Virus record (IMG/VR): IMGVR_UViG_2606217173_000005
DNA from: a virus
Taxonomy: Duplodnaviria; Heunggongvirae; Uroviricota; Caudoviricetes
Length of the DNA stretch: 8,078 nt
Strand: one strand, 5' to 3'
In this document: positions 1-8,078 of the stretch, in pieces
How the letters are laid out: each line of letters begins with the position of its first letter
How positions within the stretch are numbered: the stretch's first letter is position 1
The notes under the pieces: generated by a model
Database searches by the model: none
What the model saw: only the letters and a program-made list of their open reading frames with translations
Told to the model about the DNA's origin: nothing
Translations under genes and position numbers: made by a program

Positions 1-1026
<1,026 letters not shown>

Positions 1027-2718: not shown

Positions 2719-3399
2719 ATGGGAACTGCGACATTAATACTCGGTGAGTCTGGCACCGGAAAATCAACCAGCATGAGAAATATCAATCCAGAGGAAGCAA
2801 TACTTATAAAACCAATAGGCAAGCCGCTACCATTTAAATCAAAAGAATGGCTGGCATGGGATGCCAGAGCAAAAAAAGGAACCGTAGTTACCACTGACAA
2901 ATGGGACGTAATAGTTGCCGTAATTAAGCGTGCTCACGAATACGGGAAAAGAATCGTTATTGTTGATGACTTCCAGTATGTGATGAGCAATGAGTTTATG
3001 CGCCGTTCAGAAGAAAAGTCGTTTGATAAATTTACTGAGATAGGCCGCCACGCATGGGAGGTGATTAAGGCTGCACAGGATGCGCCTGATGACCTGAGAG
3101 TCTATTTTCTTGCGCACACCGAAGAAACACCTATGGGGCGCGTGAAAATGAAAACTATCGGCAAAATGCTGGACGAGAAAATCACTGTTGAAGGCATGTT
3201 TACTATAGTTCTTCGCACCCTTACCCGTGATGACCAGTTCTTTTTCACCACGAAAAACAACGGTGCAGACACTGTTAAATCCCCAATGGGAATGTTTGAT
3301 ACCAATGAGATTGATAACGATCTCTCTTTCGTCGATGCCACTGTTTGTGATTACTACGGCATCAATAATGTTCATCAAATTAAGGAAAACGCCGCATGA
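2719..3399 (+). CDS. Sak4-like RecA-core ATPase (phage single-strand annealing protein, AAA_24-type)
   Basis: 226 aa; N-terminal Walker A LILGESGTGKST; Walker B-like RIVIVDDFQ; size and motif order typical of phage Sak4; RBS GAGG upstream. Confidence 0.8.
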   Translation: MGTATLILGESGTGKSTSMRNINPEEAILIKPIGKPLPFKSKEWLAWDARAKKGTVVTTDKWDVIVAVIKRAHEYGKRIVIVDDFQYVMSNEFMRRSEEKSFDKFTEIGRHAWEVIKAAQDAPDDLRVYFLAHTEETPMGRVKMKTIGKMLDEKITVEGMFTIVLRTLTRDDQFFFTTKNNGADTVKSPMGMFDTNEIDNDLSFVDATVCDYYGINNVHQIKENAA

Positions 3400-3983
3400 G
3401 CAACGTGATTTTTACTTATAACGAAGAAGCAGCACTGACCGCAGGGCAAGGTGGTTTTATTAACGAAACTGGCGCTCATATAATTACCATTACTGAAGCA
3501 GAACTAAAGCAATCAGAAAAAGGCGCAAAATTTATTGAGTTTTCTGGCGAATCCGACGACGGACGTAAAATACAATATCTTAGCGTTTGTGTTCAGAAAA
3601 ATGACGGAACGGAAAATAAATTTGGCGCAAATGTCGTCCACGCCATGATGGGGTGTGTTGGGATTAAGCGGTTAACGCAACATATGGTTTCCGCCAGTAA
3701 ATTTGTTGCACCTGAATTTCATGGAAAGAAAATCGGGTTAGTGCTCCAGAAAGTATTAACCACAAACAAAAAGACTGGCGCAGACAGCTACCAGATGGAA
3801 ATACGCATCCCGTTTATTGCACAAACAGGTCAAACCCTTAAAGAAAAGTCGGAAGGCAAGCAACCAGAAACTATCGCCAACATGGCTGCCAACCTCAAAG
3901 ATAAAGACAATCGCTCTAAAAACGTAAGCCAGAATCATGCAGATGATTATGGTTACAGCCAGAACGATTACCCTCCTTTCTGA
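3396..3983 (+). CDS. Putative phage SSB-like partner of Sak4 with acidic/aromatic C-terminal tail
   Basis: 195 aa; ATGA start/stop overlap with the Sak4-like gene; C-terminus ...HADDYGYSQNDYPPF resembles the SSB C-terminal tip (DDDIPF-like); RBS AAGGA at 3382-3386. OB-fold not verified. Confidence 0.7.
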   Translation: MSNVIFTYNEEAALTAGQGGFINETGAHIITITEAELKQSEKGAKFIEFSGESDDGRKIQYLSVCVQKNDGTENKFGANVVHAMMGCVGIKRLTQHMVSASKFVAPEFHGKKIGLVLQKVLTTNKKTGADSYQMEIRIPFIAQTGQTLKEKSEGKQPETIANMAANLKDKDNRSKNVSQNHADDYGYSQNDYPPF

Positions 3984-4006: not shown

Positions 4007-4303
4007 ATGCCAGCGCCTCTGTATGGTGCGGACGACGCGCGCCGCTGTTCCGGCAATTCCGTATTGGAGGTGCTGGATAAATTCAGAAAAAACTACGACC
4101 TGATAATGTCGCTACCGCAGGAAACGAAAGAGGAAAAGGAATTTCGCCATTGTATCTGGCTTGCAGAGAAAAAAGAACGCGAGCGAATTTACCAGACATC
4201 AATCCGACCATTCCGCAAAGCCACATATACCCACTTCCCTGAATATATCGACCCGCGCCTGCGTAATTACCGCTCACGCTATGGCGCTATCAGTAATGAC
4301 TGA
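4007..4303 (+). CDS. Hypothetical protein (98 aa)
   Basis: RBS AAGGA at 3995-3999, ATG at 4007; codirectional in the operon; no recognisable motif. Confidence 0.7.
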
Positions 4304-4313
4304 GGAATTTACC

Positions 4314-4478
4314 ATGAGAGGACTTGCATACAATCCCAGCATTCTTCCGGCAGAAATGATTATTCGCCAACGCGTAAAGCCAATGCCATCGAGAGAGGAA
4401 TTGCTTAAGAGAAATTCTTTTCCGTCAGTGAATCAAAACAAATATCTAAATGCGATGTTGCGGAGTGGGAAGAAATGA
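4314..4478 (+). CDS. Hypothetical small protein (54 aa)
   Basis: GAGGA at 4302-4306 then ATG at 4314; ends in an ATGA overlap with the next gene; preferred over the longer 4161 start, which overlaps the preceding gene in another frame. Confidence 0.45.
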
Positions 4479-4897
4479 AACAAATGTCACTAATTGAAAT
4501 GGATGGTTTTCTGAAAGGTAAATGCATCCCACGAGATTTAAAGGTTAACGAAACAAACGCTGAATATCTGGTGCGTAAATTTGCTGAAGCGAAGGCCAAG
4601 TGCGCGGCGCTGGCAGCGGAGAATGCGGCGCTTAAACAGTCGGAGAAGGAATTTAATAACTTCTGTCGTCAGGAGTACTACGGTTGGGAGGACAACTTCA
4701 CGGAAACCCCAGCCACCGATGCTTTCCTGGCTGAAGTACGGGCGCAGGGTGTGGAGATGCTGGCAAAAAATCATCAGAGTATCGTCAATGCACTTAAGGG
4801 AGATTCTCTCTTTTCTGATGGTGAATACCGACATGCAGCTATTGTTTCCGCAGCTGTATATTTCGCTGCAGAGCTTCGCAAAGGAGGCAGCCAGTGA
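4475..4897 (+). CDS. Hypothetical protein (140 aa)
   Basis: GGAG at 4462-4465 then ATG at 4475; the stop overlaps the next gene's GTG start (GTGA). Confidence 0.7.
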
Positions 4898-5775
4898 GAG
4901 AAATTAACTATCAGGAACTGCGTGAGCGTTATTCACAGCAACCAGTACCAAAATGCCGCATTTGTGGTGATGAAATGACAGTGCAGCGTATATGTGGCAG
5001 ACACATCACGTATGGATGTACAGGCGCAACCTACGACGACAAAGGTTGCTACTACGCAGAAGGCCGCAGTATCGCAGATGACCATTATGGGCTGTCCCGC
5101 GTCACTGTTATCGATGTTAGCGACCCGGAAGTTCTAGCATTACTGGATGAACGGGAAAGAAACCAGCAATACATCAAATCCCGCGACAAGGAGAACGAGG
5201 ATATTGCGCTAACGGTAGGGAAGCTGCGCGTTGAGCTGGAAGGCAAAGACAGCAAAATAGCCAATCTTACCGCCGAACGCGATGCTCTTCGTGAAGGTGA
5301 GATGGGCGACGCTAGGCATAGCAACACACGGGCCGCAGCTGATATCTACTTCCAACTGGTCGAGGAGTGCGAAATTCCTGCTGGCGGTTCTCTGGTCGAG
5401 TACGTTGACGATATGCGCGAGAAGCTGGAAGCCGCAGAGAAGCACATAGCAGAACTGGAAACAAAAGCGAACCAGCAAACCAGAATAAGCGATAAGGGGC
5501 TGACAAAGCTGATTGCCGATGCTGACAAAATGCTGGGTATGCGTTCGCCGGTTATAGACAGCGAGTGGTGGACGCTTTTACGGCAGTTCCTGATTGAACT
5601 TCAGGATCGCCGCAGAAACAGCATTTCTGAATCTGGAATCCGTGCTGAAACCCTGAATGATTTAATCCGACATATTGACAGAAACCTGGATATTGACGCG
5701 ATGAAATCGCCGTTTGAACTGTCATCTGAAATTGTGGATTACGTTAATAGGCAACTGCACAAGGAGAATTCGTAA
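4894..5775 (+). CDS. Ea22-like prophage protein with N-terminal Cys-rich putative zinc ribbon and central coiled coil
   Basis: 293 aa; GTG start 6 nt after AAGGAGG (4881-4887); Cys cluster CRICGDE...C...C...C in the first 55 residues; the segment LLDERERNQQYIKSRDKENEDIALTVGKLRVELE matches my recollection of the conserved Ea22 core (not database-verified). Confidence 0.75.
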   Translation: MREINYQELRERYSQQPVPKCRICGDEMTVQRICGRHITYGCTGATYDDKGCYYAEGRSIADDHYGLSRVTVIDVSDPEVLALLDERERNQQYIKSRDKENEDIALTVGKLRVELEGKDSKIANLTAERDALREGEMGDARHSNTRAAADIYFQLVEECEIPAGGSLVEYVDDMREKLEAAEKHIAELETKANQQTRISDKGLTKLIADADKMLGMRSPVIDSEWWTLLRQFLIELQDRRRNSISESGIRAETLNDLIRHIDRNLDIDAMKSPFELSSEIVDYVNRQLHKENS

Positions 5776-5957
5776 TGCAGGTGGCATTTGTTGGCCTGTT
5801 ACCGCATCCGATCCGCCTTTGGGCGGATATGTCACTCATAAAAACGCATTTTTTTACTACTGATGGCGGCATTCCGGCACCAAAGCGCCGCCATACCGGT
5901 ATTGCAGCGGCACGACGAGCAGCAAAGAAACGCAAACGCAGGAGAACAAAACGATGA
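5775..5957 (+). CDS. Hypothetical small protein with extremely basic C-terminal tail (60 aa)
   Basis: AAGGAG at 5761-5766; TAATG overlap with the upstream gene and ATGA overlap with the downstream gene; tail PKRRHTGIAAARRAAKKRKRRRTKR. Confidence 0.45.
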   Translation: MQVAFVGLLPHPIRLWADMSLIKTHFFTTDGGIPAPKRRHTGIAAARRAAKKRKRRRTKR

Positions 5958-7311: not shown

Positions 7312-7617
7312 ATGATTATGGTCTGTTCAACATTCAACCCTCTAACGTTACAGAAATACCAGCCAGACCCTGAAGATTTATGCTCACTGTGTGGCGGAAA
7401 TCATGGCAAAGCCGCCATGATCGAATGTAAGGACAAAATCCACATATGCCTTAATTGCGTTGATGTCCTCGTTGATATCAAAAATGAGAGAGAAGATAAA
7501 AAGCGTAGCGAGGCTGTTCGCGCCTTAGATTCATGGATGCGAGATGGGTATAGTGCCGCGCAAATTTATGACTTAGCCATTTCAAAAGGCGAAATACCAG
7601 GTGTGCGAATCGAATAA
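7312..7617 (+). CDS. Hypothetical protein with CxxC...C...CxxC zinc-finger-like motif (101 aa)
   Basis: ORF with Cys pattern CSLCGG...C...CLNC; weak RBS; starts directly after the tandem terminators. Confidence 0.6.
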   Translation: MIMVCSTFNPLTLQKYQPDPEDLCSLCGGNHGKAAMIECKDKIHICLNCVDVLVDIKNEREDKKRSEAVRALDSWMRDGYSAAQIYDLAISKGEIPGVRIE

Positions 7618-7832: not shown

Positions 7833-7877
7833 ATTACCTGATTTGCAGGTTCGATTCCCTATTTGGAGATAGCACTC

Positions 7878-8078
7878 ATGCAACACGAACTACAGCCTGA
7901 TTCACTGGTTGATTTGAAATTCATCATGGCCGATACTGGCTTCGGTAAAACCTTCATCTATGACCGGATTAAGTCCGGCGACCTGCCAAAAGCCAAAGTT
8001 ATCCACGGGCGAGCAAGATGGTTATATCGTGACCATTGTGAATTCAAAAATAAGCTCTTAAGCCGCGCCAATGGGTAA
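7878..8078 (+). CDS. torI: Excisionase / recombination directionality factor of the Xis-AlpA-TorI winged-helix family
   Basis: 66-aa ORF MQHELQPDSLVDLKFIMADTGFGKTFIYDRIKSGDLPKAKVIHGRARWLYRDHCEF...; the pattern F-x-Y-x-x-I-x-x-G-x-hPK-x-x-K-x-G-x-x-x-RW is typical of AlpA/Xis-type excisionases; length and sequence match my recollection of TorI of prophage KplE1 (CPS-53), not database-verified; GGAG at 7865-7868 precedes the ATG at 7878. Confidence 0.75.
   Translation: MQHELQPDSLVDLKFIMADTGFGKTFIYDRIKSGDLPKAKVIHGRARWLYRDHCEFKNKLLSRANG

Follow-up and report, generated by a model that had tools for sequence, protein, structure and literature searches.

The window analysed here is the whole stretch of 8,078 nucleotides of the IMG/VR record IMGVR_UViG_2606217173_000005, a virus of the class Caudoviricetes, and the gene in question is an ea22-like gene encoding a protein of 293 amino acids with a cluster of Cys residues near its N-terminus. 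The protein is composed of five modules: an 11-amino-acid tag, a Cys/His head of 66 amino acids, the Ea22 core with its predicted coiled coil, a helical middle module that is optional, and a tail that is likewise helical (Table 1). The head is an independently conserved cassette that always lies between tag and core, with four invariant candidate metal ligands and a confidently predicted, β-rich fold.

An earlier note, made from the letters of the window alone, had called this open reading frame (ORF) with a GTG start, and the call holds. Besides the Shine-Dalgarno sequence in front of it, the GTG codon (4894-4896) overlaps the TGA stop codon (4895-4897) of the upstream ORF as GTGA, and the start is well supported because a DNA alignment of the start region places an ATGA at the same position in the homologues of E. 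coli E7-1N7 and Salmonella phage ST64B (sb32). The stop codon of ea22 in turn overlaps the ATG (5775) of the next small ORF by one base (TAATG). GTGA is the usual arrangement for translational coupling, and the overlaps indicate that translation of ea22 is coupled to the genes on either side. A terminator-like site was not found on the plus strand within or just ahead of the gene, and antisense ORFs inside 4894-5775 were set aside as they lacked support.

The same note had recognized the protein as Ea22-like, which the Pfam family PF13935 (Ead_Ea22; InterPro IPR025153) corroborates with a match to residues 3-142 (E 1.3e-30, 107.2 bits, gathering cut-off 27); the family is also precomputed for all 120 of the 120 best homologues. 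Alignment to Ea22 of phage lambda, which had been proposed as a check, yields 77% identity over 48 amino acids (residues 75-122 against lambda residues 32-79) and no further match beyond it. The identical 293-amino-acid protein is deposited at NCBI as "ead/Ea22-like family protein [Escherichia coli]" and is found on 15 contigs. By its sequence, the protein is thus an ordinary and correctly annotated member of the mosaic Ea22 accessory family of lambda-like prophages. Members of this family are described as having a variable N-terminal region, a coiled coil and a variable C-terminal region (PMC10834534, PMC8614690). Ea22 forms a tetramer and has a pro-lysogenic phenotype, both of which are known only for the proteins of lambda and a few Shiga toxin (Stx) phages (PMC10834534, PMC7093339).

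Table 1. Position of the ea22-like gene, its modules, the candidate ligand residues and the coupled upstream ORF in the window
Feature	Position	Strand	Description	Basis
Shine-Dalgarno sequence AAGGAGG	4881-4887	+	6 nucleotides 5' of the GTG start	direct sequence reading
Ea22-family coding sequence, complete	4894..5775	+	293 amino acids and TAA stop codon, GTG start	ORF list and raw sequence
Family tag M-x-x-I-[ND]-Y-Q-x-L-R-E, residues 1-11	4894..4926	+	left cassette flank; predicted helix at residues 6-13	N-termini of homologues, alignment, AlphaFold2
Cys/His head cassette, residues 12-77	4927..5124	+		193 representative clusters, conservation, AlphaFold2
C21-R-I-C24, zinc-knuckle-like CxxC	4954..4965	+	codons 4954-4956 (C21) and 4963-4965 (C24); followed by G25	C21 in 139/139, C24 in 138/139, G25 in 135/139 heads
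C34, minority Cys	4993..4995	+	usually S or G	15/139 heads (11%)
C42, third invariant Cys	5017..5019	+	directly after predicted strand 37-41	138/139 heads; AlphaFold2
C52, lineage-variable Cys	5047..5049	+	in variable hairpin; elsewhere Y, D, W and others	78/139 heads (56%)
H64, candidate fourth metal ligand	5083..5085	+	in ADDHY motif	139/139 heads
Conserved Ea22 core PEVLALLDERERNQQYIKSRDKENEDIALTVGKLRVELE, residues 78-116	5125..5241	+	start of long predicted helix 78-136; right cassette flank
Optional middle helical module (GKDSKIANLTAERDALREGEMGDARHS...EKHIAELE), residues 117-187	5242..5454	+	about 97% DNA identity to HK620 hkaG, HK633 and HK140
C-terminal module, residues 188-293	5455..5772	+	short low-confidence helices, ends in KENS
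Upstream coupled ORF, 140 amino acids, phrog_614	4475..4897	+	shares a module with the tails of other Ea22-like proteins

The Cys/His head and its candidate metal ligands

The codons confirm the Cys residues listed in the earlier note at positions 21, 24, 34, 42 and 52, and the cluster lies, as stated there, ahead of the conserved core, which starts near residue 78; the sixth and last Cys of the protein is C159. Five Cys within 32 residues have a binomial probability of about 3e-5 at a Cys frequency of 1.15%, a value that is uncorrected for the many windows scanned. Stronger evidence than composition that the cluster did not arise by chance is the retention of C21, C24 and C42 in 138 to 139 of 139 distinct heads. 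These heads, all of them near-complete, form the sample for the conservation counts; the search itself was an exhaustive HMMER run of residues 12-77 against 1.84 billion representative proteins, which returned 193 clusters at E<=1e-3. Among the 150 clusters listed, nearly all carry the head at about residues 12-77 of the target. The one clear exception has it at residues 137-205, directly preceded by the tag-like sequence QALVARLRERY, and looks like a protein whose start was called too far upstream.

P19, G57, Y65 and S68 are likewise invariant, and R12, Y13, G25, M28, Y40, G44, G51, R58 and D62 are nearly so. H64 is part of the motif GR-x-[IFL]-AD-[DE]-HY-x2-S, while residues 43-56, including C52, vary in length among the heads. 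The conserved signature that emerges from the aligned heads is C-x2-C-x17-C-x21-H, that is, CCCH and not four Cys. The four-Cys zinc ribbon of the earlier note therefore stands in part: C21, C24 and C42 are conserved as predicted, C34 and C52 are not, the fourth invariant candidate ligand is H64, and a ribbon fold is suggested by sub-threshold matches only. It is possible that in the allele of the window C52 acts as the fourth ligand of a four-Cys set (C21, C24, C42, C52); C34, judged from its rarity, is an unlikely metal ligand. Only one CxxCG knuckle (C21, C24) is present; the second CxxC of a two-knuckle zinc ribbon is absent, and C42 is followed by either C52 (x9) or H64 (x21) as a single residue.

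An AlphaFold2 model of residues 1-90, built from an alignment of 136 sequences, has a mean predicted local distance difference test score (pLDDT) of 91.1 and a predicted template modelling score of 0.72. In this model, the tag helix 6-13 precedes the C21/C24 knuckle, which is flanked by single-residue bridges; strands 29-34 and 37-41 lead to C42, followed by the variable hairpin with C52 (strands 45-48 and 51-54), a helix with H64 (63-68), a strand (70-73) and the helix 78-89, with which the core begins. A Foldseek search with the predicted head gave nothing significant in the Protein Data Bank (PDB; best E 1.7) or in BFVD (best E 0.33), and the weak matches recur on zinc ribbons and zinc fingers such as Rpb9, C11, topoisomerase I, Ogr/Delta and TFIIB. 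A sequence search of the PDB returned chance-level matches only, and neither the solved C-terminal domain of the lambda protein nor any other chain was recovered. The closest known small zinc ribbons include the zf-GRF domain of APE2 (PDB 5u6z), NrdR, Rpb9 and Dof.

The zinc-ribbon profile Zn_ribbon_recom (PF13408) of the large serine recombinases matches the window head at residues 20-53 of the protein, below its cut-off (E 0.05, 14.4 bits versus 25.3); 26 out of 30 diverse heads match it, all of them sub-threshold, with a best E of 1.9e-4. The spacing C-x2-C-G-x2-M ... Y-x-C ... C is common to the heads and to the motif of that family, and C52 presumably sits at the place of its fourth Cys. 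However, this Cys is missing from 44% of the heads, and the heads differ from Zn_ribbon_recom by the extra invariant helix motif GR-x-[IFL]-AD-x-HY-x2-S and by the lack of a recombinase context. One head-bearing protein carries the automated JGI label "ssDNA-binding Zn-finger/Zn-ribbon topoisomerase 1". A DksA/TraR-type zinc finger, which has the same C-x2-C-x17-C spacing, was rejected as the head lacks the second CxxC and its predicted fold is β-rich instead of helical. In small cytoplasmic domains, a CxxCG knuckle combined with a further Cys and a His, all of which are invariant here, is the classic mark of a structural zinc site. A reasonable reading of the head is thus a zinc-ribbon-like domain that probably binds zinc; sequence and fold matches do not place it in any defined zinc-ribbon family.

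Mosaicism of Ea22-like proteins

The N-termini of the 120 best homologues and their MAFFT alignment reveal a family layout of the 11-amino-acid tag, a swappable cassette, the conserved coiled-coil core and swappable tails, which agrees with the modular swaps at both ends that the earlier note had mentioned for Ea22 proteins. The tag MxxI[ND]YQxLRE is found in nearly all homologues, and the core, residues 78-116 of the window protein, follows the motif ...LALLDERERNQQYIK.RD.ENEDIALTVGKLRVELE. For 101 of the 120 homologues, the cassettes in between cluster into at least nine unrelated groups, and the Cys-containing group, which is that of the query, comprises 36 proteins. DNA matches to other alleles begin at nucleotides 238-250 of the gene, where the core starts. 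Thousands of E. coli genomes have ea22-like genes to which the core DNA block is 90-95% identical, and 2233 of 5426 complete ones contain this block; nucleotides 250-566 of the gene are about 97% identical to HK620 hkaG, HK633 and HK140. The head DNA is fully covered in only three of these complete genomes, and the combination of the whole gene is found in none of the 5426. In the phage collection, the head is present only in ST64B (Sb32), As1, S.Typ Adana, GE_vB_TR, Xuanwuvirus P884B11, ES18 (gp41) and the P1-like phage D6.

The head is freely shuffled, as the tails of 165 head-bearing proteins fall into 104 clusters; about a hundred different tails thus occur together with it, and its place is taken by unrelated cassettes in other members of the family. 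The mosaic joints fall at conserved DNA flanks, namely tag and core, and the DNA of these two elements would provide the homology for the recombination that swaps the cassettes. No Pfam family covers the C-terminal module of the window protein (residues 188-293), and deposited phage genomes almost entirely lack it. The Ea22 proteins in the comparison by Dydecka et al. 2020 were reported to end with an R/K-G-E tripeptide, a feature of a small sample that lies outside of the Pfam definition (PMC7093339); the window protein lacks it and ends with ...LHKENS, while many homologues end with ...GIRIKGE. MAFFT aligned SGIRAE (residues ~246-251) with the ...AGIRIKGE end of many homologues, and two PHROG profiles end near residues 243-245. 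The last ~45 amino acids (window 5629-5772, residues ~246-293) may, from the alignment and the profile ends, be an add-on past an ancestral ...GIRIKGE stop. A relationship of this segment to YoeB/RelB was rejected, since the PDB sequence match (E 0.3) is at chance level.

Lambda Ea22 (NP_040612, 182 amino acids) shares the N-terminal tag, the core LLDERERNQQYIK.RD.ENEDIALTVGKLRVELE and PF13935 with the window protein. Its cassette, in contrast, consists of about 20 amino acids without a Cys, and any resemblance ends after residue ~122; the Stx phage variants V1-V3 have an unrelated segment of 63 amino acids in the position of the head. The same head at the same position is found in ST64B Sb32, ES18 gp41 and Escherichia phage D6, with 74%, 63% and 54% identity, respectively, over residues 1-86/87, whereas the tails of these proteins differ from that of the window protein and Sb32 has a Ser at position 34. 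Like the GTGA of the window, the start of the ST64B gene overlaps the upstream gene in an ATGA-type arrangement. The Ead_Ea22 profile itself aligns to the head (E 2.2e-6 with the head alone), and because the profile reaches it and it is present in the long-sequenced ST64B Sb32 and ES18 gp41, the sequences indicate that the Cys/His head is not new to the Ea22 family.

Genomic neighbourhood

On the plus strand, ea22 is preceded by genes for a Sak4-like annealase (2719-3399), a single-stranded DNA (ssDNA)-binding protein (SSB, 3396-3983) and the anti-RecBCD protein Abc2 (4007-4303), followed by the coupled ORF of 140 amino acids. Downstream on the same strand lie two small ORFs, genes for a DUF551 and a DUF4752 protein and, at the end of the window, an excisionase-like ORF. 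The locus is an accessory region of the early-left, exo-xis type in a lambdoid prophage; ea22 of lambda and the V1-V3 genes of Stx phages (Donaldson and Wegrzyn laboratories) likewise lie ahead of xis in the early-left operon. An IS5-type transposase gene (1-981, minus strand; 326 amino acids, DUF772 and DDE_Tnp_1) abuts the operon in the window and in two related contigs (L004 and L005). A further contig with the same ea22 allele (L003) has an intact cI-cro-cII-O-DnaB-nin region, and an ERF recombinase replaces the Sak4-like/SSB pair. The same ea22 allele is thus found with two recombination modules.

In the related contigs, the prophage adjoins dsdC-dsdXA-emrYK-evgAS of E. coli. In all four of them, dsdC follows directly after the excisionase-like gene (L004 7900-9200; window 7863-8078). 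Between these two genes, no integrase gene is called in the four contigs and ARAGORN detects no tRNA gene; the end of the prophage with the integrase may have been lost, which would leave the prophage fixed at its site. Of the head-bearing ea22-like genes in complete E. coli genomes, the closest is that of E. coli E7-1N7 (L007 2471-3118), which lies outside of an exo-xis type region, in a group of small nin-type genes downstream of the replication gene P. Genes of the Ea22 family thus move from one accessory region to another.

The 140-amino-acid ORF and the Ea22-like protein of the window match different halves of the profile phrog_368, and a BLASTP comparison of this ORF with the protein P0101 gives an E of 2e-7. 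From these matches, the ORF looks like a "headless" relative of Ea22 tails that lies beside an ea22 gene. Downstream of ea22, the plus-strand ORF 5775-5957 (60 amino acids), which gene calls in four related contigs include, encodes a very basic tail (…AAARRAAKKRKRRRTKR); it contains GC-rich inverted repeats, 5863-5870 with 5887-5894, as well as a palindrome at 5886-5909. The plus-strand ORF 7312-7617 (101 amino acids, phrog_3680) contains C-S-L-C-G ... I-C-L-N-C and matches the N-terminal zinc-binding domain of ClpX in NCBIfam with an E of 0.002-0.003, far below the cut-off. Its Cys pattern suggests that it may encode a second small zinc-finger protein of the region. Upstream, the plus-strand ORF 1280-2248 (322 amino acids, phrog_1376) contains an extended low-complexity segment (residues ~110-280) in which E, A, K and R are abundant, and has no match in Pfam, NCBIfam or PADLOC.

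Function and rival explanations

As a whole, the data are best explained by an ea22-family accessory gene of a lambda-like prophage, whose five-module product has a putative zinc head, displays binding modules and acts in a pro-lysogenic manner, an explanation to which we give somewhat better than even chances. The head would bind one zinc ion with the two Cys of the CxxCG knuckle, with C42 and, as the fourth ligand, with H64 or C52, and zinc would thereby stabilize a domain that is too small to fold without it. The full-length AlphaFold2 model is poor (pLDDT 65.9), with long helices at residues 78-136 and 167-197 and a short, low-confidence helix bundle at 201-292; in a crude heptad count, 59% and 89% of the a/d positions of the two long helices are hydrophobic compared to a background of 36%. 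By analogy to Ea22 of lambda and Stx phages, which is a tetramer, the coiled coil would lead to an oligomer that displays several heads and tails together. Most likely, the partner of the displayed modules would be a protein of the host or of a phage and not nucleic acid, and binding would push the lysis-lysogeny decision towards lysogeny. A protein partner is favoured because the head is slightly acidic (net charge -1; on average -1.6 across 145 heads) and the protein as a whole has a net charge of -15.

The same charges argue against the view that the head is a nucleic-acid or ssDNA binding zinc ribbon of the topoisomerase I or GRF type, which tethers the oligomer to recombination or replication intermediates produced by the neighbouring Sak4-like protein, SSB and Abc2, as acidic charge is unusual for a nucleic-acid binder. 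In addition, the matches to topoisomerase I and GRF-type ribbons are all at chance level or stem from automated labels, and the linkage to the recombination genes is inconstant, with the head-bearing gene of another E. coli genome lying beside replication and nin-type genes. We therefore regard a nucleic-acid-binding head as improbable.

An equally low probability is assigned to a counter-defence or defence-triggering factor, in which an arms race with the immunity of the host or of competing phages would have diversified heads and tails as modules for recognition or as decoys, and any effect on the lysis-lysogeny decision would be secondary. The extreme shuffling of modules at both ends would fit such a role, as would the position of the gene beside one for an anti-RecBCD protein in an accessory region that is non-essential, the rarity of each combination in complete E. 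coli genomes (full allele 0/5426, head DNA 3/5426) and the acidic charge, which is shared by many protein or DNA mimics. However, the protein has no match in PADLOC, which holds defence and not anti-defence proteins, or in NCBIfam, and a link between Ea22 and defence was not found in the literature.

Least probable is that the Cys residues bind no metal and the head is a small β-rich domain with a surface for binding or catalysis made up of its invariant residues (R12, Y13, G57, R58, D62, H64, Y65, S68 and the Cys), or only a cap for oligomerization of the coiled coil. In favour of this view, conservation is poor for two of the five Cys, the head reaches the threshold of no zinc-finger family and the N-terminal region of Ea22 has been proposed to mediate formation of a dimer of dimers (PMC10834534). 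Against it, CxxCG, the further Cys and the His are invariant across heads down to ~40-45% identity, and the families that recur among the sub-threshold matches are zinc ribbons, not other folds.

Part of what is described here was already known: the gene has been annotated, is not known to be essential and conforms to the mosaicism that is familiar from lambdoid phages, and head-bearing alleles have been present in phage genomes for years. In published work, the N-terminus of Ea22 figures only as a "short variable region", and the Ea22 papers cited here make no mention of cysteines or zinc. New relative to the searchable literature is a defined, probably zinc-binding Cys/His domain in this N-terminal slot, with the ligand set CCCH and not the five Cys of the window allele. 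The slot thus holds a repertoire of folded cassettes, one of which is sharply defined, probably stabilized by zinc and equipped with invariant surface residues.

Ea22 is one of the few proteins of the exo-xis region that have been shown to push lambda and Shiga toxin phages towards lysogeny, and residues 1-90 offer a compact bait with clear point mutants for finding partners of Ea22-type proteins. It is tempting to go further and consider the 66-amino-acid head (R-Y-x5-P-x-C-x2-C-G ... [YW]-[GA]-C-x-G ... G-R-x-[IFL]-A-D-x-H-Y-x2-S) a previously undescribed zinc-binding family with no significant solved relative, which serves as a plug-in target-recognition module on a multivalent coiled coil; this extended claim is unlikely, though less so than the alternatives discussed above. 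If true, Ea22 proteins would constitute a combinatorial "display" system, in which each head and tail picks a different target of the host or of a rival phage, for instance a component of immunity.
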